Notes: generated from the sequence alone by a model not told the origin. A DNA stretch of 64,000 nucleotides from an uncultured bacterium (GCA_937863685.1 CALMGM010000005.1:909046-973045), one strand, 5' to 3'. Shown: positions 2,106-58,045, numbered from the stretch's first letter. A program made the numbers and translations.

Positions 2106-3362
2106 TTAATTCCCTTCCGATTGCGATGCCGGTGGTTTGTTTTTGCTTAAAATATCCAGGCATTCCGTTTCTTCGGTCACCTGGTTGCCGGTGTACATCA
2201 AGCCCGCCATCATCACCAGGCTGGAGACCAGGATCACGAAGAACAGCACGCCCTCGCCGAACCGCTTAAGCACGAATTGCTGGGGAATGCTGTAATAAAG
2301 GATGATGGTGATCAGTCCGCGGGGGGCGATGAATAATTCCGGAAACAGGCTGGTCTTGGCGATGTATTTAAGATGAAAATAGCGGACCGAGAAGATCATT
2401 ACCATTATCAGACTGCCCAGCAGGATAATCTCCAGGTTAAGCAGATAGGCCAGGTGGATGGAGTAGCCGAACAGCACGAAGAAGAAAGTCCGGATGACAA
2501 AAGCCGACTCCGAAGTGATCAGCTTTAATTGCCGGAGCTCGTAGGTCAGCTTGTACGGGTTCAGATATTTCTTGATGGGGCCCCGGACGATCAGATAAAC
2601 GTTGCTGATGGTCAGGCCGAACACCAGTATCAACAGCAGGGATGAAAGGTGAAACAGCTCTCCCAGGGAATACACCAAAAACAGGATGGAGAGCAGCAGG
2701 AAGAATTTATTGTGTCCGGCGATCTTGTCAATGAACAGCAGCAGCAGCAGGGAGCAGACCACCGAGATGAGCGAGATGACGGTCAGGTTGCCGACAAAGG
2801 AGAAGACCGAAGCAGCCGACCACAGGCTTTTCTGAATGGCGAAATTGAAGATCATGATGCCGATGATATCCGAAAAGGTGGCCTCATAAACCATGAACTC
2901 TTTTTTATCGGGGCTCAGGTTGCAGACCGAGGGGATCACTATGGCGCTGCTGATGACGGCCATGGGGACTGCGTTTACAAAGCAACTTTGGAAAGGAGCG
3001 TTCAGCACCAGTTTTATCACCAGGGCTATCAGCAGGGATGATGCCACGAAGATCAGGACCGCCGAGGCCATCGATTTTCTTATCACCGGCAGCTTCTCCC
3101 GGCTGAGGTTGAGTTCCAGAGTGGCTTCCAGCACGATCAGGATCACTCCGATGATGCCGAACAGCTCCAGATATATTCGGGAATTGAGGAAGGCTATATT
3201 CAGAGAGCTACCGACAAAACGCAGGATGATCCCCACGGTCAATAGCAGCAGGACCGAAGGGATTCTCGACTTCCGGGACATGATGTCGAACAGGTAAGAC
3301 ATTATCACCAGAAGACTCAAGGAAATGATCAGCGAATATGAAAGCAATCCCGGATGATCCAT
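2106..3362 (-). CDS. Cation:proton antiporter (CPA1/NhaP-like) membrane protein
   Basis: 418 aa polytopic hydrophobic protein with Na+/H+ exchanger-like TM pattern. Confidence 0.55.
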   Translation of the reverse strand: MDHPGLLSYSLIISLSLLVIMSYLFDIMSRKSRIPSVLLLLTVGIILRFVGSSLNIAFLNSRIYLELFGIIGVILIVLEATLELNLSREKLPVIRKSMASAVLIFVASSLLIALVIKLVLNAPFQSCFVNAVPMAVISSAIVIPSVCNLSPDKKEFMVYEATFSDIIGIMIFNFAIQKSLWSAASVFSFVGNLTVISLISVVCSLLLLLFIDKIAGHNKFFLLLSILFLVYSLGELFHLSSLLLILVFGLTISNVYLIVRGPIKKYLNPYKLTYELRQLKLITSESAFVIRTFFFVLFGYSIHLAYLLNLEIILLGSLIMVMIFSVRYFHLKYIAKTSLFPELFIAPRGLITIILYYSIPQQFVLKRFGEGVLFFVILVSSLVMMAGLMYTGNQVTEETECLDILSKNKPPASQSEGN

Positions 3363-3455
3363 AGATTAACCCAGATAATGATGATTAGTGTGTTGTTCAA
3401 TAGGAATTATCTTATATATCCGGAACGAAGTCAATCCAAATGATAGGGGCTGTTT

Positions 3456-4937: not shown

Positions 4938-5387
4938 TTATTTTACCATATCCTCGGCCTTGGAAAAATGCATCTGAAAAATCTTCCACGTGCCATCGAT
5001 TTTCTCCAAAACGCCTGTCCAGCGCACCTTCTCCCAGTTGGCAGGCTTGCCTTTAAAGGTATTGAAATCATCCAGCAGGCAGGCAAACCAGGCGGTCTGT
5101 AATGTCGCCGATAAGTTTATCCTGAGTTCATGCAGCTCGTATTTTATCGCCTTAAAATCATCCCGCATGAAGAAATCCCCCGTCATTTTTTTAAATTGCT
5201 CAATGCCCCTGACGGTACTTTTGGAATCGGTCTGAAAGAAGAACAGTTCGTCATTGTCTATCATGGAAGAATAAAGCTGGTCCAGGTTCTTATTGTTCAC
5301 CGCCCAGCCGATGCTGTCCCGTATGACCTGGTCAATTATTTTGATCTCGGGATGGGGATTGTCGATGTTATTGTAGGTGTAGGGCAT
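4938..5387 (-). CDS. NTF2-like / SnoaL-like domain protein
   Basis: 149 aa soluble protein with NTF2-fold-like pattern; weak. Confidence 0.4.
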   Translation of the reverse strand: MPYTYNNIDNPHPEIKIIDQVIRDSIGWAVNNKNLDQLYSSMIDNDELFFFQTDSKSTVRGIEQFKKMTGDFFMRDDFKAIKYELHELRINLSATLQTAWFACLLDDFNTFKGKPANWEKVRWTGVLEKIDGTWKIFQMHFSKAEDMVK

Positions 5388-5391
5388 GATA

Positions 5392-5910
5392 TCATTCCTT
5401 TCGATTATCTATCCAGAACCGCAGGATGTTTTTACCGGTGGATTCCTCTAAAACGACGTTCTCGATGATCCCGCCGTTTTTTTCTATCACTTTTTGCGAG
5501 TGGATATTTTCTTCATTGCAGGTGACCAGGACCCGGTCTATGCCATGTTTTGCGGCTTCCAGCAGAGTCTGTCTTAATATCTCCGTAGCGTAGCCTTTCC
5601 GGCGGTGTTCGGGTGAAACATCATAACCGATATGGCCGCCGATATTCAAAAAATACTTATTTAGCTCCAGACGCAGCCGGCTGTTACCGACAAGAACATT
5701 GTCATCATTCAAGAACCAAAATGATTTTTGCAGGACCTTTCCCGGCGGCAGATTATCCGGGTCCTCGAACCGATTGAGTGCGGTAATATATTCCCGAAAG
5801 GGCTGCCCTTCTTTTATCTGATGCCGGTCCTCACTATGCCGGCGGTAGGTTGCGGAGAATTCAGCGAATAATGGCTCGGTGAGTTCGTCTAATCTTATAT
5901 GGCGAAGCAT
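5392..5910 (-). CDS. GNAT family N-acetyltransferase
   Basis: GHIGYDVSPEHRRKGYATEILRQ acetyl-CoA binding motif (R/Q-x-x-G-x-G/A). Confidence 0.75.
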   Translation of the reverse strand: MLRHIRLDELTEPLFAEFSATYRRHSEDRHQIKEGQPFREYITALNRFEDPDNLPPGKVLQKSFWFLNDDNVLVGNSRLRLELNKYFLNIGGHIGYDVSPEHRRKGYATEILRQTLLEAAKHGIDRVLVTCNEENIHSQKVIEKNGGIIENVVLEESTGKNILRFWIDNRKE

Positions 5911-8339: not shown

Positions 8340-8468
8340 GGCAACGAAAAATGGCAGGCGATATAGAAATATCAAGAACCTTTAGAACATTCAAACACAA
8401 AGCATGAATAATAATTGAAGCAACAACCAAGCTTAAAAACCCTAAAAAAGCAATGATTTTTCAAACCG

Positions 8469-12312: not shown

Positions 12313-12371
12313 ACCTGCCACAAAGACACAGAGTATAACTATTCACAATTTACAATTCACGATTTGGCTTA

Positions 12372-15756: not shown

Positions 15757-16392
15757 TTATTGTTTTGGGAACCCCCAACTTAACCAAGATACATATTGAT
15801 CACGCAGCACTTCAGCAATATCAAATATTTCGTCGGCTTGTGCTGTTGTAACTTTAAGGCCATGTACTGCAGCATTGCACCAATTAATTATATATACAAG
15901 AAGATCCGCTTGTCTATAAGTGATAGCTGAATTCTCTTTTAGTTTTCGAACAATAATATTTGCACTATCGCGGTTATTTATTTGAACTTTAAAGCCTTTT
16001 GCAAGATTCTTTAATAAAGTTTCAAATTCAATGCGTAAACCAGCTAAAGCAATTGTTGGGTCTTGTTCGATAAGGTTACGATAAAAAGATAACTCTAATC
16101 CAGAAGGGGATGGGGATAGTCCTAGATTTAACATACGGGCATTAGCTTCTGTTAAAGGAATCGTAGCTGTTGCTTTTTTCTCACCCTCTTTTTTAACCAC
16201 CGAAGATAACGCTTTGGCTTCTTTGATTTCTTCGGGGAACGTTTCAATTGATACGCCACCCGGTAAGTCCGCTTTTTTCACGCGCTTGATCAATAAAACG
16301 ATTTCTTCTCTAAAAGAGATAACTAAAAGAAAAGTTACTAATGGCCAAATAATAGCCTTAATATATTCGAGTATTAATTTTGCAACATCCAT
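15757..16392 (-). CDS. Membrane-anchored DUF4145 (HEPN-like) domain protein; AT-rich
   Basis: One N-terminal TM helix; C-terminal block ANIIVRKLKENSAITYRQADLLVYIINWCNAAVHG...AEVLRDQY resembles DUF4145 (R..GN.AAH core); GC far below flanks. Confidence 0.45.
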   Translation of the reverse strand: MDVAKLILEYIKAIIWPLVTFLLVISFREEIVLLIKRVKKADLPGGVSIETFPEEIKEAKALSSVVKKEGEKKATATIPLTEANARMLNLGLSPSPSGLELSFYRNLIEQDPTIALAGLRIEFETLLKNLAKGFKVQINNRDSANIIVRKLKENSAITYRQADLLVYIINWCNAAVHGLKVTTAQADEIFDIAEVLRDQYVSWLSWGFPKQ

Positions 16393-25988: not shown

Positions 25989-26083
25989 GCCGATATTTAA
26001 CACAAATCCAAAGGCATCACTTTTTTCTACTCTTAAATTATGGGGACTAGAACTGCACAGAAAAGACCATATAAAATCTCTTT

Positions 26084-26108
26084 GTGTCTTGGTGTCTTGG
26101 TGGTTAAA
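26084..26108 (+). promoter_or_regulatory. Tandem direct-repeat motif GTGTCTTGGTG-TCTTGGTG-GTTAAA upstream of lpxC-fabZ; near-identical copy at 58019-58045
   Basis: 24/26 identity between the two copies, both just upstream of essential operons. Confidence 0.35.
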
Positions 26109-26210: not shown

Positions 26211-26239
26211 TTGACAATATTTTTTTTTTAAGGTATTAT
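26211..26239 (+). promoter_or_regulatory. Sigma70 promoter TTGACA-N17-TATTAT for lpxC-fabZ operon
   Basis: ttgaca 26211-26216, tattat 26234-26239, ATG 26286. Confidence 0.55.
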
Positions 26240-26285: not shown

Positions 26286-27590
26286 ATGTCCAAACTGCAG
26301 AAAACCATAGTCACCGAGGTCAGCTTCTCCGGGGTGGGGGTCCATACCGGGAACGTCACCAAGATCACCTTCAAACCGGCCCCGGCGGACAGCGGCATAA
26401 AGTTCATCCGCAGCGACCTGCCCCAGGCCCCGGAGATCCCGGCCCTGATCGACTACGTGGTGGAGACCGCCCGGGGCACCACCCTGGGACGGGATGTGGA
26501 CGGCCAGCTGGTAAAGGTCCACACCGTGGAGCATGTTTTGGCGGCGGTGGCCTCGCTGGAGATAGACAACCTTAGGGTGGAGATGGACAACAACGAGCCG
26601 CCCATCGGGGACGGCTCCTCGCGCCCCTTTTTGGACATCCTGAAAAAGGCCGGAACGGTGGAGCAGGACGCCCCCCGGAAATATTTCGAGCTGCCCCGGA
26701 TGGTATCCATAGCCGACGATGAGGTCCAACTGGTGGCCAATCCGGCCAAGGACTTCCGGATAAGCTTCACCATAGACTTCGACCACCACCTGCTGCGCAG
26801 CCAGTACGCCTCCTTCGCCATCGACGGGGAAGTGTTCGACAAGGAGCTGGCCGACGCCCGGACCTTCTGCCTGGCCCGGGACGTGGAGATGCTCCGGTCC
26901 CAGGGGCTGATCAAGGGCGGCAGCCTGGACTCGGCGGTGGTGATCGGCGAACAGGGCATAGAGAACAAGGAGCCGCTGCGCTACCCCGACGAATTCGTGC
27001 GGCACAAGATACTGGATCTGCTGGGCGACCTGACCCTGCTGGGCATGCCCATCAGGGGACATGTGATATCAATCAAATCCGGTCACCGCTCCAACGTCAA
27101 ACTGGTCCGGGAGATCAAGAAGGTCTACGACGAGATGGAGAAACAGAAGAAGGGCCCGGTGTTCGACATCAACGCCATCGCCGGGATGCTGCCGCACCGC
27201 TATCCCTTCCTGATGGTGGATCGGATCATAGACCTGGAAGAGGGCAAGCGGGTGGTGGGGATCAAGAACGTCACCATCAACGAGCCGTTCTTCCCCGGCC
27301 ACTTCCCCGACCGGCCGGTGTTCCCGGGGGTGCTGATCATCGAGGCCCTGGCCCAGACCGGAGCGTTCATGATACTGCATTCGGTGGAGAACTACCATCA
27401 GAAACTGCTGTACTTCGCCGCCATAGACAAGGTGCGTTTCCGCAAGCCGGTGGTGCCGGGCGACCAGCTGAGGTTCGAGCTGAGAATGGTCTCGTTCAAG
27501 CGGGGGATCTGCAAGATGGAGGGCCAGGCCCTGGTGGACGGCCAGGTGGTGTGCGAGGCCGAGATGACCGCGGCGGTGGTGGATAGGTGA
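26286..27590 (+). CDS. lpxC/fabZ: Bifunctional UDP-3-O-acyl-GlcNAc deacetylase / 3-hydroxyacyl-ACP dehydratase (LpxC-FabZ fusion)
   Basis: N-terminal LpxC blocks (KTIVTEVSFSGVGVHTG...), C-terminal FabZ hot-dog (LPHRYPFLMVDRI...FFPGHFP..PVFPGVLIIEA). Confidence 0.9.
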   Translation: MSKLQKTIVTEVSFSGVGVHTGNVTKITFKPAPADSGIKFIRSDLPQAPEIPALIDYVVETARGTTLGRDVDGQLVKVHTVEHVLAAVASLEIDNLRVEMDNNEPPIGDGSSRPFLDILKKAGTVEQDAPRKYFELPRMVSIADDEVQLVANPAKDFRISFTIDFDHHLLRSQYASFAIDGEVFDKELADARTFCLARDVEMLRSQGLIKGGSLDSAVVIGEQGIENKEPLRYPDEFVRHKILDLLGDLTLLGMPIRGHVISIKSGHRSNVKLVREIKKVYDEMEKQKKGPVFDINAIAGMLPHRYPFLMVDRIIDLEEGKRVVGIKNVTINEPFFPGHFPDRPVFPGVLIIEALAQTGAFMILHSVENYHQKLLYFAAIDKVRFRKPVVPGDQLRFELRMVSFKRGICKMEGQALVDGQVVCEAEMTAAVVDR

Positions 27591-27611
27591 TTTCAATGTT
27601 CTACAAGTTCG

Positions 27612-27625
27612 AAAGGTTCTAAATG
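27612..27625. repeat. Left arm of inverted repeat bracketing four-helix-bundle gene 1 (aaaggttctaaatg)
   Basis: 13/14 complementary to 28030-28043 (catttggaaccttt). Confidence 0.5.
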
Positions 27626-27647
27626 TTCGAAATGAAGTGATACCGAT

Positions 27648-28001
27648 ATGAAAGAACCTAAATTCACAGAATTGCTGGTCTGGAAAAAGGCCCACCTGTT
27701 AGCATTGGAAATCTATAAAGTAACATCAAAGCTTCCCAAAGAGGAAATGTTCGGTCTATCATCACAAATGAGACGGGCCTCGCTTTCGGTGGCGGCAAAT
27801 ATAGCCGAGGGATGCAAAAAATCAAAGCCAGATTTTCGCCGATATTTAAAAATATCCGAGGGCTCACTGGAGGAGTTAAAATATTACTTTATCGTTTCTC
27901 GGGATCTCGGCTATATAGACGATGAAAAGCATTCGGGCTTTATCACTAGTGCTAATGAGGTTGGGTTTTTATTACATCGTCTTTGGTCCAGTCTTGGTTA
28001 A
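27648..28001 (+). CDS. Four-helix-bundle protein (23S rRNA intervening-sequence protein / Avd-like family), copy 1
   Basis: LLVWKKAHLLALEIYKVTSKLPKEEMFGLSSQMRRASLSVAANIAEGC...GSL.EL..YF pattern of TIGR02436; lower GC than flanks. Confidence 0.8.
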   Translation: MKEPKFTELLVWKKAHLLALEIYKVTSKLPKEEMFGLSSQMRRASLSVAANIAEGCKKSKPDFRRYLKISEGSLEELKYYFIVSRDLGYIDDEKHSGFITSANEVGFLLHRLWSSLG

Positions 28002-28029
28002 TTAGGACAGACCTTAAAGACTGGTGCTT

Positions 28030-28043
28030 CATTTGGAACCTTT
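28030..28043. repeat. Right arm of inverted repeat bracketing four-helix-bundle gene 1
   Basis: See 27612-27625. Confidence 0.5.
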
Positions 28044-28068
28044 AAAACATTTAATTCATTTACAACCT

Positions 28069-28842
28069 ATGGAAAATATTCATCCCACTGCCATCATAGA
28101 CCCGTCGGCCAAGATAGGCAACGACGTGGAGATCGGCCCTTTCACCATCATCGGCCCGGAATGCGTCGTCGGCGACAACTGCCGGATAGGCTCCTCGGTG
28201 GCCATCCACCGCTGGACCGAGCTGGGAGAAGGCTGCCGGGTGTGGCACGGGGCCTCTTTGGGCGGCGACCCCCAGGACCTCAAGTTCAAGGGCGGCCGGA
28301 CCACGGTCAAGATAGGCAAGAATACCGTGATCCGCGAATATGCCACCATCAATCTTTCCACCGACGAGGGCGATGTCACCCTGGTGGGCGACAACTGCTT
28401 TTTAATGGCCTACTGCCACATCGCCCACGAATGCACGGTGGGCAACAATGTCATCCTGGCCAACTCGGCCACCCTGGCCGGCCATGTGACGGTGGAGGAT
28501 TTCGCCATCATCGGCGGGCTGACCCCCGTGCACCAGTTCGCCAGGGTGGGCTGCTACTGCATGATCGGGGGATCATCCGCCGTCCAGAAGGACGTGCTGC
28601 CCTACACCAAGGCCTTCGGCAATCCCCTGGGCATGTACGGGCTTAATTCGGTCGGCCTTACCCGCCGCGGCTTCAGCCAGGAGCAGCGGGACCTGATAGA
28701 AAAGGCCTACCGCCTTATCTTCCGTTCCAAGTTGAACACCAGCCAGGCCCTGGGCCGCATCAAGGACAGCCTGCCGATGTCCCCGGAGATCAAACACATC
28801 CTGGAGTTCATCGAAGGCTCGGCCCGGGGGATAACCAAATAG
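28069..28842 (+). CDS. lpxA: Acyl-ACP--UDP-N-acetylglucosamine O-acyltransferase LpxA
   Basis: MENIHPTAIIDPSAKIGNDVEIGPFTIIG hexapeptide-repeat left-handed beta helix, LpxA-length. Confidence 0.9.
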   Translation: MENIHPTAIIDPSAKIGNDVEIGPFTIIGPECVVGDNCRIGSSVAIHRWTELGEGCRVWHGASLGGDPQDLKFKGGRTTVKIGKNTVIREYATINLSTDEGDVTLVGDNCFLMAYCHIAHECTVGNNVILANSATLAGHVTVEDFAIIGGLTPVHQFARVGCYCMIGGSSAVQKDVLPYTKAFGNPLGMYGLNSVGLTRRGFSQEQRDLIEKAYRLIFRSKLNTSQALGRIKDSLPMSPEIKHILEFIEGSARGITK

Positions 28843-28980
28843 AGACTTCCTGACCATCATAGCCCCGTATCAGTCATGATATGGGGTTTTCTGTTGAGCA
28901 GGACTAATTTTATTTATAACTTTACGCTTGATATTGGATTTGTTTTACAGTAATATATTTATAACGAAAGGCGTTAATAA

Positions 28981-29754: not shown

Positions 29755-29871
29755 TATACAAGACCCTGGTTGAAGAATGAATATAGAATATTGAATACGG
29801 AATGATTTGTGATCTCAGATATTAGTTTGCATTCTAGCTTCAATATTCGGTATTCTCGTTAGGAGGATATT

Positions 29872-31146
29872 ATGCAGAAGTTATTGTCGTTTGTTCTTTT
29901 GATAATATTAATTTGCGGGATAACAGAAGCCTCCCAGGTGATGATCATCCGGGTGGAGGACGCCATCAGCCCGGCCTCGGCCCGTTTCATGGTGCAGTCA
30001 ATCGAAAGGGCCCAGGAGCAGAAGGCGGAATGCTTGATCATCGAGATGGACACCCCCGGCGGGCTGGACCAGTCCATGCGCCAGGTGATCAAAGCCATTA
30101 TGGCCTCTGATATTCCGGTGGTGGTCTACGTGGCGCCCCAGGGATCGCGGGCGGCCTCGGCCGGGGCCTTCATCACCTTGTCCTCCCACGTGGCGGCCAT
30201 GTCGCCGGGCACCAGCATCGGGGCGGCCCATCCGGTGTCCGTCGGCACCGGGCAGATGGACAGCACCATGTCCGGCAAGGTGACCAACGATGCCGCGGCC
30301 TACATCCGCTCCATAGCCGAAAAACGGGGCCGCAACATCGCCTGGGCCGATTCGGCGGTGCGCCGCAGCGTCTCATTATCCGAGACCGAGGCCCTCAAGC
30401 GGAAGGTGATAGACCTGATCGCCGACGATACCGAAGCCCTGCTGGATTTGCTGGAAGGAAGGCAGGTCATTATGGGCCAGGATACGGTGGTGCTTCACAC
30501 CAAAGGGGCGGAGAAGGTCCTGGTGGAGATGAACTGGCGGGACAGGATCCTGTCCATCATCTCCAATCCCAATATCGCCTACATTTTGTTCATGGCCGGC
30601 CTGCTGGGGCTGTACTTCGAGTTCTCCAATCCCGGGGCCATCTTCCCCGGGGTGGTGGGGGCCATCTCGCTGATACTGGCCTTCTTTTCGTTCCAGACCC
30701 TGCCGGTCAATTACGCCGGGATGCTGCTGATAATTCTGGCCATAGTGCTGTTCATCCTGGATGTCAAGATAGCCTCGCACGGAATACTCAGCATAGGAGG
30801 TATAATTGCCATGTTTTTGGGATCGGTGATGCTTTTTCAGACCCCGGACCCGGCCATGAGGGCCTCGCTGCAGGTGATCATCCCGGTGGTGCTGGTGACC
30901 GCGGCCTTCTTCGTGATCGGGGTCTGGCTGTCCATAAAGACATTGAGGACCAGGCCCGTCTCGGGCGACCAGGGCCTGCTGGACCAGGAGGGCGACGCCC
31001 GGACGATTGTCAACAAGGATGGCGGCCGGGTATTCGTGGCAGGGACCCACTGGAGCGCATGTTCGGATGCCGAGATCGCCGAGGGGGCCAAGGTCAAGGT
31101 GGTGGAAGTAAAAGGGATGAAGCTGAAAGTCATAAAGAGCGAATAG
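29872..31146 (+). CDS. NfeD-like membrane-bound ClpP-class serine protease
   Basis: Signal peptide, ClpP-like N-domain (IIEMDTPGG...GSRAASAGAFI), TM segments, C-terminal OB-fold; partner stomatin downstream. Confidence 0.75.
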   Translation: MQKLLSFVLLIILICGITEASQVMIIRVEDAISPASARFMVQSIERAQEQKAECLIIEMDTPGGLDQSMRQVIKAIMASDIPVVVYVAPQGSRAASAGAFITLSSHVAAMSPGTSIGAAHPVSVGTGQMDSTMSGKVTNDAAAYIRSIAEKRGRNIAWADSAVRRSVSLSETEALKRKVIDLIADDTEALLDLLEGRQVIMGQDTVVLHTKGAEKVLVEMNWRDRILSIISNPNIAYILFMAGLLGLYFEFSNPGAIFPGVVGAISLILAFFSFQTLPVNYAGMLLIILAIVLFILDVKIASHGILSIGGIIAMFLGSVMLFQTPDPAMRASLQVIIPVVLVTAAFFVIGVWLSIKTLRTRPVSGDQGLLDQEGDARTIVNKDGGRVFVAGTHWSACSDAEIAEGAKVKVVEVKGMKLKVIKSE

Positions 31147-31151
31147 CGGAA

Positions 31152-31162
31152 AGCGTGTAGCG
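31152..31162. repeat. Left arm of 11-bp perfect inverted repeat bracketing four-helix-bundle gene 2 (agcgtgtagcg)
   Basis: Perfect complement of 31554-31564 (cgctacacgct). Confidence 0.55.
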
Positions 31163-31181
31163 AACAGGGGATGGGCGTTGC

Positions 31182-31553
31182 ATGAACAATACAAAAAGCT
31201 TCTCCGATCTGATAGTATGGCAAAAGTCGTACAAATTATGCGTTGAGGTCTATAAAGTATCCAAGGAGTTTCCCAGCCAGGAAAACTTCGGTTTGATCTC
31301 ACAAATTAGAAGGTGTTCGGTTTCTATTCCCTCAAATATAGCCGAAGGCTATGCTCGCAAAAACCGCAAGGAATACATTCAATTTTTATATATGGCAAAC
31401 GGATCGCTGGCGGAACTGCAGACACAATTGATGCTTTCGAAAGATATTGGTTATTTAAATGAAAATATTTATAATGTTTTATATTCTTTGTCACAGGAAG
31501 TCGGCAGAATGCTCTGGAAAATGATAGTTGGCTTGAGACAAAAGGAACCTTAA
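31182..31553 (+). CDS. Four-helix-bundle protein (23S rRNA intervening-sequence protein / Avd-like family), copy 2
   Basis: LIVWQKSYKLCVEVYKVSKEFPSQENFGLISQIRRCSVSIPSNIAEGYAR...GSLAELQTQL; paralogue of 27648-28001. Confidence 0.8.
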   Translation: MNNTKSFSDLIVWQKSYKLCVEVYKVSKEFPSQENFGLISQIRRCSVSIPSNIAEGYARKNRKEYIQFLYMANGSLAELQTQLMLSKDIGYLNENIYNVLYSLSQEVGRMLWKMIVGLRQKEP

Positions 31554-31564
31554 CGCTACACGCT
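31554..31564. repeat. Right arm of inverted repeat bracketing four-helix-bundle gene 2
   Basis: See 31152-31162. Confidence 0.55.
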
Positions 31565-31619
31565 ATTCGCTTTACGCTTATATATCAAATCTAATAAACT
31601 TAATAAAGGAGAGAAAGCC

Positions 31620-32381
31620 ATGACTGGTTACATTGTCTTAATTATCTTCGTGCTGTTCATTTTGCTCAACACCTTCAAGATCCTGCGGGAATACGAGCGG
31701 GGCGTGGTCTTTAGGCTGGGGCGCTACGTGGGCACCCGCGGCCCGGGACTGATCATCCTGATCCCCCTGTTCGAGAAGATGGTCAAAGTGACCCTGCGCA
31801 CCATCGCCCTGGACGTGCCGGCCCAGGAGGTGATCACCAAGGACAACGTCTCGGTGAAGGTCAACGCCGTGATGTACTTCCAGGTGTTCCAGCCCGACAA
31901 AGCCATCATCGCGGTGGAGGACTACATGTACGCCACCAGCCAGATGGGACAGACCACCCTCCGCTCCATTTTGGGCGAGCACGAGCTGGACGACCTGCTC
32001 TCCAACCGGGAGAAGATCAACCAGACCCTGCAGAAGGTGATCGACGATCGCACCGACCCCTGGGGCATCAAGGTCTCGGCGGTGGAGGTCAAGGACGTGG
32101 ATCTGCCGGAGGGCATGAGGCGGGCCATGGCCAAGCAGGCCGAGGCCGAGCGGGAGAGACGGGCCAAGGTTATCCACGCCGACGGCGAGTTCCAGGCTTC
32201 AACCAAACTGCGGGATGCCGCCACAGTGATGGCCGCCGAGCCGGTGACCGTGCAGCTGCGCTACCTGCAGACATTGACCGAGATCGCGGTGGAGAAGAAT
32301 TCCACCATCATCTTCCCCCTGCCGTTGGAATTCATGAGATATTTTTCCAAGATATTGGATAATACCGAGAAGAAGGCATAA
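31620..32381 (+). CDS. SPFH/band-7 (stomatin-like) protein
   Basis: [16 protein letters not shown]...LIILIP SPFH N-terminus, coiled-coil tail [14 protein letters not shown]. Confidence 0.85.
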
Positions 32382-43345: not shown

Positions 43346-43867
43346 GTGTGTCAAAAAATGCGTGAGATCGTTTATCATAAAGTGCCTGACGAGTTGCAAG
43401 GAGATACGATATATCCTTTAAACAGACTTAAGGATATCTTTCCGGGTGTGTATCAAAAGCAAGCAGCAAAATACACAGGAAGAGAGAATTTGCTGCAAAG
43501 GAAAGTACCGATTTTAAATTGTCTGTGGAATGACGTGATCCATCTTACGGCCATAAATCCAAAAATAATATTCTCATTTTTACGACAGATAGGTTTTGAA
43601 TACCCTCTTCATGGCTTTTATGAAATAGATTTTTCCAAGTTGGATCCGGATTATTGTATAGAAATGATTTATTCCGGCGGTGAAAGGAAATACCGAAAGA
43701 TCGAATCTGACAAATTCCCCAAAGTTGAAAATTTGCCAGCAGAAACCATTGAGTATTTCAAAAGCTGCTGGAAAGAAAAAACCCACCCCCTGCTGTTCAA
43801 TGGTATCCCGCATATTCTGTATAAGGGCGCGATAAATATCAAAGGAACAGCAATAATCGAAGTTTAA
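43346..43867 (+). CDS. Hypothetical protein, AT-rich
   Basis: 173 aa, no confident family; GC far below flanks. Confidence 0.3.
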   Translation: MCQKMREIVYHKVPDELQGDTIYPLNRLKDIFPGVYQKQAAKYTGRENLLQRKVPILNCLWNDVIHLTAINPKIIFSFLRQIGFEYPLHGFYEIDFSKLDPDYCIEMIYSGGERKYRKIESDKFPKVENLPAETIEYFKSCWKEKTHPLLFNGIPHILYKGAINIKGTAIIEV

Positions 43868-50168: not shown

Positions 50169-51230
50169 ATGAATAAATATTTTATCATCCTTACAATGCT
50201 TTGTGTAACATCAGTGTTAAATGCTCAAAGCCTCGAAGACCTGGAGTCTCTTTATGGACAAGGAAAATTTAATGAGGTTATAGATAATTCAGCAAATATG
50301 CTGGCTAACGAACCAGATGACCCGATAATTAATATGTTGGTGGGAAGATCTTACGCAGATAAGATGAATTTTGAGGAAGCCATACCATATTTGAGAAAGG
50401 CAATAGAAAGCGATAGAACCAATTCATGGCCCAAAGCCTGGTCGTTAGTTTATCTGGGGTCGTGTTATTTTGCCATCGGCAACCGTGAGGAATCTATTAA
50501 ATATATCAAGGAATGTATATCGATGAATGCGACCAAGAATGTTACAAACAGTGCCTTAATTAAAAACGTGCTTTTCGGTTTCGACCAAAGTTATAATAAT
50601 TGGGAAGCAAGAGAGACGGAACATTTTGTCTTTCACTTTCAACCGCTATCGCTCAAAGATATAAATGATATTGACAAATATATTAAAATCCGGGAAATGG
50701 CTTTTATGCATATAAGTGAGTTTTTTGTCAGCAATTTGCCAAAGAAAATAGATTTTTTTATCTGGCATTCCCGAGAAGATATCAAAGCTGTTCTCAAATC
50801 AAACGGAGGTTTTGCAAAACCTGAATATTGCATTATCCATGCTTGTTTTGATCAAACTCCCGGTCATGAGATTACCCATGTCGTTTCAAATTATACAGCG
50901 ACGGTTATAAATAAAACCGTTCTAATCAACGAGGGAACAGCCGTTTACTTTGACCAAACAAGTCGCGATCAATTGGCCTTAGCTAGGAAAGCCATAAAAG
51001 AAAAAGGCTACTCAAGCATCTCTCTTAAGGAGATATGGAATAATCGTGTTATGCCGGAAGCTGTGATGTATCCGATTGGCGGCGCATTCGTAAAATACTT
51101 GATAGATACCGAAGGAAAAGACAAATATCTTGAATTATTTAAAGACCAGACATATCAAAACGGCCATAAAATATACGGCGATAAATTTGAAAAGATTGTT
51201 TCCGAATTCGAAAACAGTTTGTTTCAGTAA
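50169..51230 (+). CDS. Secreted TPR-containing protein with possible HExxH motif; strongly AT-rich
   Basis: Signal peptide MNKYFIILTMLCVTSVLNAQS; PGHEITHVV; GC about 35% vs about 60% flanks. Confidence 0.4.
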   Translation: MNKYFIILTMLCVTSVLNAQSLEDLESLYGQGKFNEVIDNSANMLANEPDDPIINMLVGRSYADKMNFEEAIPYLRKAIESDRTNSWPKAWSLVYLGSCYFAIGNREESIKYIKECISMNATKNVTNSALIKNVLFGFDQSYNNWEARETEHFVFHFQPLSLKDINDIDKYIKIREMAFMHISEFFVSNLPKKIDFFIWHSREDIKAVLKSNGGFAKPEYCIIHACFDQTPGHEITHVVSNYTATVINKTVLINEGTAVYFDQTSRDQLALARKAIKEKGYSSISLKEIWNNRVMPEAVMYPIGGAFVKYLIDTEGKDKYLELFKDQTYQNGHKIYGDKFEKIVSEFENSLFQ

Positions 51231-57940: not shown

Positions 57941-58018
57941 TGCTATCCGAAAAACCAGCCGGAATTTTAACTGCGGAGACGCAGAGATCGCCAAGATTTA
58001 TAAATCTGCATTTCCCTT

Positions 58019-58045
58019 GGTGTCTTGGTGCCTTAGTGGTTTAAA
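58019..58045 (+). promoter_or_regulatory. Second copy of GGTGTCTTGGTG-CCTTAGTG-GTTTAAA motif, immediately upstream of rimP-nusA-infB
   Basis: See 26084-26108. Confidence 0.35.

Follow-up and report, generated by a model that had tools for sequence, protein, structure and literature searches.

What is the small gene that parts lpxC-fabZ from lpxA in a 64,000-nt stretch of DNA from an uncultured bacterium (GCA_937863685.1 CALMGM010000005.1:909046-973045; hereafter the window), of the lineage Candidatus Edwardsbacteria (TA06-related), and what are the inverted repeats on either side of it for? The insert, at positions 27,591 to 28,068 and here called E1, encodes a protein of the PF05635 four-helix-bundle family, and its repeats are the cores of longer tandem-repeat arms. 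A second cassette of the same architecture, E2, was found 3 kb away with arms of unrelated sequence, and arms of this build characterise the protein family in general. E1 and E2 are elements of the intervening sequence (IVS) type that stand outside rRNA, and they are more general than was first proposed. On balance we lean towards the view that such cassettes are promoterless and act at the RNA level: they would be transcribed by read-through and looped out by a long-range stem between their arms, which RNase III probably cuts.

The cassette in the lpx operon

The initial annotation had placed here a lower-GC gene of the TIGR02436 family, and profile matches agree with it in coordinates and family. 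The open reading frame (ORF) of E1 (27648..28001, plus strand) encodes 117 aa and matches PF05635 (E=5.6e-35, 120.2 bits, curated cut-off 33.8) and TIGR02436 (E=6.4e-33, 113.2 bits, cut-off 24). It is preceded by the gene for a bifunctional LpxC-FabZ (NF009667, 556 bits) and followed by lpxA, with its ATG at 28069 (NF003657, 360 bits). The GC content is indeed lower, 41% against 62% in lpxC-fabZ. An exact-sequence look-up of the E1 protein matched no record. The features of the locus are as follows.

26211..26239, plus strand: sigma-70-like promoter match TTGACA-17-TATTAT (11/12 hexamer positions), 5' of lpxC-fabZ
26286..27590, plus strand: lpxC-fabZ, upstream host gene (profile match)
27594..27637, plus strand: E1 5' arm, about four 9-nt units GTTCnAAAn, beginning 4 nt past the lpxC-fabZ stop
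27612..27625, plus strand: left 14-nt core repeat, within the E1 5' arm
27648..28001, plus strand: E1 ORF, PF05635/TIGR02436 four-helix-bundle protein (profile match)
28027..28060, plus strand: E1 3' arm, 9-nt units reverse-complemented, ending 8 nt 5' of the lpxA ATG
28030..28043, plus strand: right 14-nt core repeat, within the E1 3' arm
28069..28842, plus strand: lpxA, downstream host gene (profile match)
28861..28888, plus strand: intrinsic-terminator-like hairpin after lpxA (sequence match)

The 14-bp inverted repeat reported earlier lies exactly where it had been placed. Its left core aaaggttctaaatg (27612-27625) and right core catttggaaccttt (28030-28043) are complementary at 13/14 positions, the sole mismatch being a U.G pair in the sense RNA, and at least 13/14 was reached by 6/3000 shuffles of the flanks. 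It is, however, merely the core of longer arms with a 9-nt period. The left arm is the tandem array GTTCTACAA GTTCGAAAG GTTCTAAAT GTTCGAAAT (27595-27634 by Tandem Repeats Finder (TRF), 4.4 copies), to which the right spacer is reverse-complementary, though imperfectly. Longer pairings join 27612-27637 to 28027-28052 (26 nt, 85%) and 27595-27625 to 28030-28060 (31 nt, 74%), and the extended ungapped diagonal score was reached in 0/3000 shuffles. The whole cassette measures about 467 nt (about 27594-28060). Folding of the transcript had been proposed as a check, and in the fold predicted for 27585-28075 the arm-arm stem closes both the minimum-energy and the centroid structure.

When the E1 spacers were scanned, neither a promoter nor a terminator match was found. 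Since the promoter match precedes lpxC-fabZ and the terminator match follows lpxA, with neither in the spacers, the cassette appears to sit within a single transcription unit, of which 26211..26239 is likely the start and the hairpin at 28861..28888 likely the end.

The two-unit motif of E1 is nearly confined to its own arms, with one other match in the window (8372-8388, 2 mismatches). This solitary arm-like GTTCTAAAGGTTCTTGA on the minus strand stands in a 236-nt AT-rich spacer, directly 5' of a terminator-like hairpin, and is possibly left over from an arm of the E1 type.

A second cassette with unrelated arms

Further copies had also been suggested as a point to check, and tblastn found a second family member (E=2e-26) at 31182-31553, of 123 aa and 38% identical to E1, the orthologues of which are annotated as PF05635. 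It stands between the gene for NfeD1b (29872-31146) upstream and that of its SPFH/Band 7 partner (31620-32381) downstream.

31138..31162, plus strand: E2 5' arm, four 7-nt units AGCGnnn, overlapping the NfeD stop codon
31182..31553, plus strand: E2 ORF, PF05635 family (tblastn)
31554..31578, plus strand: E2 3' arm, AGCGnnn units reverse-complemented, beginning at the first base past the stop codon

The arms of E2 are 25 nt each and 84% complementary, a complementarity score reached in 0/3000 shuffles, and their duplex energy of -37 kcal/mol compares with -20.8+/-3.5 in shuffled sequences (0/2000). As in E1, the arm-arm stem closes both the minimum-energy and the centroid structure of the predicted RNA, and the cassette (31138-31578) measures 441 nt. 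The arm motif occurs nearly only in the arms of E2 itself. E1 and E2 have a common architecture and unrelated arm sequences.

An ORF-less hairpin was seen between a PNP-family gene and NfeD, with 26-nt arms (29779-29804 and 29830-29855) that are 77% complementary around a 25-nt loop; its left arm consists of the 7-nt units GAATATA GAATATT GAATACG. These arms pair in both predicted structures, minimum-energy and centroid, but overall the fold is not unusual (z=-0.7). The hairpin may be what is left of a cassette, or a non-autonomous version of one, comparable to the groES/groEL pair of Xanthomonas discussed below. A heptamer run at 12341-12364 is without an inverted partner.

Arms throughout the protein family

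A family-alignment scan of species-representative genomes gave 81 genes at 80 loci (80 species-level genomes), sampled from Bacteroidota, Ignavibacteriota, Planctomycetota, Acidobacteriota, Chloroflexota, Nitrospirota, Omnitrophota, Verrucomicrobiota, the Candidate Phyla Radiation (CPR) and others. The duplex z-score was computed from 80 nt on each side of the ORF, and 130 ORFs from the same loci served as controls. Flank-flank duplexes with z<-2 were present in 62% of the members and 6% of the controls (Mann-Whitney p=6e-20), and those with z<-3 in 48% and 2%, respectively. Strong periodicity in either arm was seen in 46% of the members against 5% of the controls (p=1e-22); the periods range from 7 to 11 nt, a period of 7 being found in 34/52 periodic arms, and the typical array has about 4-5 units. 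By inspection the left arm is nearly always made of tandem repeats and the right arm of their complement, abutting the start and stop codons. The arm architecture is general across the family. Copies in Bacteroides or Phocaeicola, for example, have arms of GGAGTTA.

The arms are moreover polar. G exceeds C in the 5' arm of 70/78 members, while the controls are symmetric, and the C content of this arm is 10% against 23% in the controls. Members also share the orientation of the upstream ORF in 73/77 cases (95%), against a background of 77% (p=2e-5), and the median gap to a co-oriented upstream ORF is 62 nt. No rRNA was detected by Rfam in any of the 80 loci. In one Planctomycetales metagenome-assembled genome (MAG; L114:829-1691) a member at 1188-1556 lies between two tRNA genes (1014-1096 and 1621-1691), and this cassette is resident in a stable-RNA operon other than that of rRNA.

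In 96% of the members (L089-L168, 84 genes) the AT content exceeds that of the host ORFs around them, by a median of 7 GC points and at every host GC from 36% to 64%, yet their GC tracks that of the host (r=0.89). Low GC thus belongs to the family as such and does not point to a recent transfer.

Recent duplication is suggested here solely by pairs of cassettes that lie 1-2 kb apart. In a Pirellulales MAG (L164:1843-2272 and 2924-3381) the two copies are 89% identical in protein and 86% in DNA, with about 4.5 heptamer units in one and 9 in the other, and a second pair (L136:2944-3335 and 5178-5569) has 81% protein identity. In the L164 pair the limits of the homology coincide precisely with the outer ends of the two arms, which makes the arm-to-arm span the duplicating unit.

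Complementarity kept while the sequence changes

The E1 ORF of the window and that of the closest relative (L001) share 89% DNA identity, and a dN/dS of 0.09 (0.04 for lpxC-fabZ) marks the ORF as functional and under purifying selection. The arms are only 61-68% identical, and in L001 each has about one extra 9-nt unit (the left spacer growing from 57 to 66 nt and the right from 67 to 75 nt). The exact 14-bp pairing is not kept there, but the overall complementarity of the arms is. In the relatives the arm duplex energy was reached by 15/1000, 28/1000, 129/1000 and 0/1000 shuffles. Gain and loss of 9-nt units make the column alignment of the E1 arms ambiguous, and E2 in L178 is the cleanest case of co-evolution. 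In this orthologue, 69% identical in protein to E2 and 46% to E1, units of AAGGGnn and nnCCCTT replace the AGCGnnn and nnnCGCT of the window, yet the period is still 7 and the complementarity 81% over 27 nt. In L192, likewise, the central perfect stem of E2 has TAA:TTA where the window has TGT:ACA. The comparison shows that the two arms co-evolve, their complementarity being kept and their sequence not.

The E2 orthologue in L178 (11590-11952) has a one-base frameshift after 'HDI' (the called protein being of 89 aa) with intact arms, either as a pseudogene or through a sequencing error.

The initial annotation had named two outcomes that would speak against it, relatives carrying the gene at this place without arms and with continuous co-transcription, or complementarity not conserved across strains. 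The relatives carry the gene with arms, and the complementarity is conserved.

History of the two insertion sites

As a baseline for the lpx junction we took, from a metagenome scan, the 80 distant loci with an LpxC-FabZ identity of at most 49% among the matches listed; nearer relatives were found by protein search and genomic-context look-ups. In the distant loci the gap between lpxC-fabZ and lpxA is mostly 9-50 nt and holds no family member, and in the nearest outgroups, L175 (57%) and L169 (63%), the two genes overlap. The junction is thus normally tight, as had been supposed. The gene was also rightly taken for an insertion, being absent from the outgroups and the distant loci and variably present within the clade.

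The junction is occupied in L001 (LpxC-FabZ 98%), L002 (86%) and L005-8 (76%), with E1 orthologues of 91% and 65-66% aa identity. It is empty in L173 (83%), where a 37-nt spacer resembles a residual 9-nt-periodic arm, and in L170 (75%), where the spacer has 83 nt. Occupied and empty lineages are interleaved in the LpxC-FabZ tree, and the simplest history would have a single old gain followed by two or more losses. In L192-195 (at least 24 contigs, LpxC-FabZ 98%) the four-helix-bundle gene is missing and a 1.47-kb segment takes its place (e.g. L192:7306-8772), containing a DUF6487 gene, a duplicated 5' fragment of lpxA and a gene of 188 aa. The right-arm 9-mers persist before lpxA in these strains, where as many as three copies of right-arm-like 9-mers together with the start of lpxA are found. 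The same 188-aa and DUF6487 genes are found in L001, in another order, after the four-helix-bundle gene. A cassette-array model for this rearrangement failed to hold up. With occupied, empty and rearranged states among its relatives, and with a further insertion in L002, the lpx site is plastic.

The L002 insertion (L002:2502-4948; GCA_016208585.1, TA06 bacterium) separates lpxC-fabZ from the cassette's left arm and is a restriction-modification module, which comprises an N6_N4 methyltransferase, an SfiI-like endonuclease and an HTH_26 controller. The lpxC-fabZ/lpxA spacer is a hot spot for insertion of unrelated cargo too. In a lineage without either cassette (L177:11338-14553) NfeD and SPFH are parted by genes for a YARHG-domain protein and a Trypsin_2 protease, and this normally tight junction is likewise an insertion site.

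From these comparisons the lpx copy of E1 appears to be an old insertion, vertically inherited and repeatedly lost, with no sign of recent movement. Of the mobile insertion first suggested, the insertion stands; the E1 copy itself bears no mark of recent mobility, and its low GC is no mark of recent acquisition. No target-site duplication is evident by inspection at E1, E2 or the L164 pair, and at E1 this comparison is not a clean one, as the ancestral empty site consists of overlapping genes.

The protein

Zhang and Ye (2013) described the motif RxxxSxxxNxxE for this family, and the corresponding residues R43, S47, N51 and E54 are invariant in our alignment of 28 sequences. The sequence matches the structures 2gsc (E=7e-30) and 2rld, with five chains in each entry, and the E1 and E2 proteins are predicted to be Avd-like, pentamer-forming four-helix bundles. 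The matches of E1 to models of Avd proper, the protein of diversity-generating retroelements (DGRs), are weak: 28 bits for PF22296 (bAvd) with a cut-off of 40, 36.4 bits for NF033474 with a cut-off of 80, and a weak match to the PHROG family 'Avd protein of DGR'. The search for a DGR partner, which had been advised, brought none to light: no reverse transcriptase was found in the 23 ORFs of the window scanned with Pfam, about one third of its ORFs, including the neighbours of the cassettes and all low-GC ORFs. A template/variable repeat pair (direct repeats of about 100 bp) is absent around either cassette, where the only direct repeats are of at most 18 nt. A scan of viral contigs gave 13 loci, none usable as a DGR control.

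The defence-system search with PADLOC gave no match. Rfam found no rRNA in the window, and the cassettes do not have the location of a 23S IVS (helix 9, 25 or 45). An integron cassette was rejected as an identity, the repeats bracketing the ORF instead of forming a 3' attC, with no integrase and no array; an attenuator or terminator was rejected likewise, the arms being about 400 nt apart with no T-run after them.

Proposed mechanism and its alternatives

The sequence of events that we consider somewhat better than an even chance begins with read-through from the host promoter, by which the cassette, placed between two host genes that are transcribed together, would itself be transcribed. The C-poor 5' arm would remain without structure until transcription, about 400 nt further on, has produced the 3' arm, a polarity by which premature folding of the first-made arm would be prevented. 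The arms would then form a stem of 25-40 bp, looping the ORF out and bringing the upstream stop codon beside the downstream start codon. By analogy with the homologous 23S rRNA IVS, RNase III would cut this stem, releasing the cassette RNA and leaving two pieces of host mRNA. Tandem-repeat arms could pair in several registers, and the stem would in this way survive point mutations as well as the gain and loss of units. This RNA-level reading is supported by the characterised homologous IVS, the orientation bias, the position within a transcription unit, the polarity of the arms, and complementarity without conservation of sequence.

Several observations weigh on the other side. Both the formation of the stem in vivo and its cleavage are steps we infer from sequence. 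The arm-arm duplex energy of E1, taken alone, is only moderately unusual (35/2000 shuffles), that of L002 is not significant (129/1000), and about 38% of the sampled members are without significant flank complementarity. Simple purifying selection at the RNA level should leave an excess of G.U among the mismatches of the arms and none is seen (33 G.U against 52 A.C on the sense strand, p=0.05), a test blurred by the several registers that repeat arrays allow. In addition, cutting between the genes of an operon could harm the expression of those downstream, which disfavours constitutive cleavage.

The arms might instead act in DNA, as terminal inverted repeats (TIRs) of a non-autonomous mobile cassette or as recombination or hairpin sites in single-stranded DNA, used by a host or trans-acting enzyme for insertion, excision and duplication, and RNA pairing would then be incidental. 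The L164 duplicate that ends exactly at the outer arm edges fits this well, as do the gain, loss and rearrangement of the E1 site among close relatives (with the residual-arm-like spacer of L173 and the right-arm units retained in L192), the mismatches without G.U bias, and the transposition origin long suggested for the inverted repeats in the IVS literature (PMC4990558). Yet the arms are wholly different between copies in one genome and between orthologues, so that no sequence-specific transposase could recognise them all, and no transposase or recombinase was found in or beside the cassettes among the ORFs scanned with Pfam. Nor is a target-site duplication evident; arms 400 bp apart should extrude poorly as a cruciform from duplex DNA, and co-orientation with the upstream gene is not predicted. 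We regard this explanation as unlikely, and a role of DNA in duplication and loss would in any case be compatible with the RNA-level model. It is also rather improbable that the units are binding sites for the pentameric protein, one per subunit as in TRAP, by which it would control either its own translation or how its mRNA is processed. Arrays of typically about 4-5 units and a 5' arm abutting the start codon suit such a role, and the related Avd binds nucleic acid. Against it, complementarity conserved without sequence, together with a variable period, argues against sequence-specific binding by protein and transposase alike: orthologues 69% identical and with unchanged motif residues have units AGCGnnn and AAGGGnn, the period varies from 7 to 11 nt, and the four motif residues are invariant across the family while the arms vary. 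The need for a reverse-complement 3' arm would moreover be left unexplained.

That the gene is the Avd of a DGR whose reverse transcriptase lies elsewhere seems to us very improbable. The weak matches to PF22296, the NCBIfam Avd model and PHROG Avd are all that speak for it, and these three scores are far under the curated cut-offs, whereas those for PF05635 and TIGR02436 are far above theirs. The scanned ORFs, every low-GC ORF included, contain no reverse transcriptase, and there are two copies, each within a housekeeping operon with lpx or NfeD/SPFH genes as neighbours; we rejected an identity as a DGR Avd on these grounds. Hardly any credence is due to chance complementarity around an ordinary small gene in AT-rich, repeat-containing spacers. 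Intergenic regions are AT-rich throughout the host genome, and the duplex energy of E1 alone has a p of only about 0.01-0.02, but E2 repeats the pattern independently (0/3000 shuffles), the family differs from control ORFs at p=6e-20, and the arms co-vary in orthologues.

Other repeats and AT-rich genes in the window

Three further ORFs have a low third-position GC (0.25-0.39, against 0.6-0.9 in most neighbours), at 15757-16392 (minus strand), 43346-43867 (plus strand) and 50169-51230 (plus strand). DUF4145 is matched weakly by one of them, another is without a Pfam match and another is a TPR and peptidase-MA-like protein; none belongs to the four-helix-bundle family. The ORF without a Pfam match and the TPR/peptidase-MA-like ORF are wedged between co-oriented host genes. 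In a window-wide scan for inverted repeats no pair brackets any of the three, their flanks not having been inspected individually. The divergent promoter region of Fur and lpxC-fabZ contains the 8-mer TCTTGGTG three times in tandem (26079-26102), and three copies of CCTTGGTG occur at 58015-58038, 32 kb from this array; the two could represent a common operator or motif.

Wider meaning

It is possible, and we propose it tentatively, that these cassettes represent an undescribed and widespread class: promoterless, arm-bounded PF05635 cassettes in the spacers of protein, tRNA and rRNA operons of numerous bacterial phyla, self-neutralised by a register-tolerant stem that RNase III cuts. The 23S IVS would be their rare rRNA case and the ORF-less pairs of Xanthomonas their non-autonomous derivatives, and the pentamer may aid an RNA-based spread. 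If so, rRNA IVSs derive from a larger population of cassettes that normally lives in mRNA operon spacers, and the unexplained heptamer arrays and inverted pairs of Xanthomonas, Nostoc and other bacteria would gain a role. Housekeeping operons (lipid A, NfeD-stomatin, the biotin carboxyl carrier bccP, cas) would then be cut or restructured in RNA by a resident element, with consequences for the interpretation of operon expression and for annotation. The cassettes also offer a setting in which the function of a very large, uncharacterised family of proteins, related to the Avd of DGRs, can be tested, and tandem-repeat arms, able to pair in any register, amount to a simple design principle for pairing RNA over long distances. 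A full-text literature search gave no link between PF05635 genes and inverted tandem-repeat arms outside rRNA, its coverage being incomplete and an earlier description possible.

Comparison with known systems

Avd of DGRs is a distantly homologous four-helix bundle and a homopentamer (PMC10053308). E1 and E2 differ from it in scoring under the Avd cut-offs and in having no reverse transcriptase among the scanned ORFs. To our knowledge, inverted tandem-repeat arms are absent from the described architecture of DGRs. MITEs (miniature transposable elements with inverted repeats) and other elements bounded by TIRs resemble the cassettes in being short units between inverted repeats, intergenic and multicopy, and the L164 duplicate likewise ends at the repeats. 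Unlike them, the cassettes carry a conserved ORF that is not a transposase, their orientation is tied to host transcription, the arm sequences are not common to the copies (those of E1 and E2 being unrelated) and no target-site duplication was seen.

In Xanthomonas, Rehm et al. (2015) described arrays of the heptamer GGGAATC, about 70 of them as convergent inverted pairs, which they read as G-quadruplex motifs, with no mention of four-helix-bundle genes or IVSs (PMC4692102). These repeats, with the related repeats of Nostoc, are similar to our arms as intergenic arrays of about four heptamers that are G-rich on one strand, often in convergent inverted pairs between co-oriented genes. The differences are that at least one pair (groES/groEL) encloses about 60 nt and no ORF, and that one unit is common to all arrays, whereas the units of E1 and E2 are unrelated. 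In the table of the same authors a four-unit array begins 6 nt past bccP (XCC0517) and overlaps the start of XCC0516 (PMC4692102), and XCC0516 is the solved member of the PF05635 family, PDB 2gsc. Zhang and Ye (2013), for their part, reported that a member of the family lies between cmr3 and cmr2, and they regarded it as a cas-associated gene; it fits the pattern of residence in operon spacers.

The closest likeness is to the 23S IVSs of Coxiella and Leptospira. The IVS in helix 45 of the Coxiella burnetii 23S rRNA has 428-444 nt, a 28-bp terminal stem and an S23p ORF in the loop, with 2-3 tandem GACAGAT heptamers, in a strain-variable number, before the ATG; RNase III cuts in the stem, and the 5' cut maps to the first heptamer (PMC4990558). 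The cassettes share with these IVSs the PF05635 ORF and a similar size (about 467 nt in E1 and 441 nt in E2), the terminal inverted repeats with a stem of about 25-28 bp and the ORF in the loop, and a purine-rich 5' arm of tandem heptamer type before the ATG with a variable number of units (4.4 of 9 nt in E1, 4 of 7 nt in E2). The IVS-like architecture proposed in the initial annotation is thereby upheld, in ORF family, in a length of about 440-470 nt, in terminal inverted repeats around the ORF and in tandem 5'-arm repeats like those of the Coxiella IVS. The differences are that E1 and E2 stand in the spacers of protein-coding operons and the Coxiella IVS in an rRNA helix; that the E1 ORF has a dN/dS of 0.09, whereas the S23p ORF of Coxiella is reported as decaying and not translated; and that cleavage by RNase III is demonstrated in Coxiella, while for E1 and E2 we infer it. 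As all structural features match except the location, we term E1 and E2 IVS-type cassettes and do not file them as 23S IVSs. The signature of inverted tandem-repeat arms unites three observations made separately in the literature.

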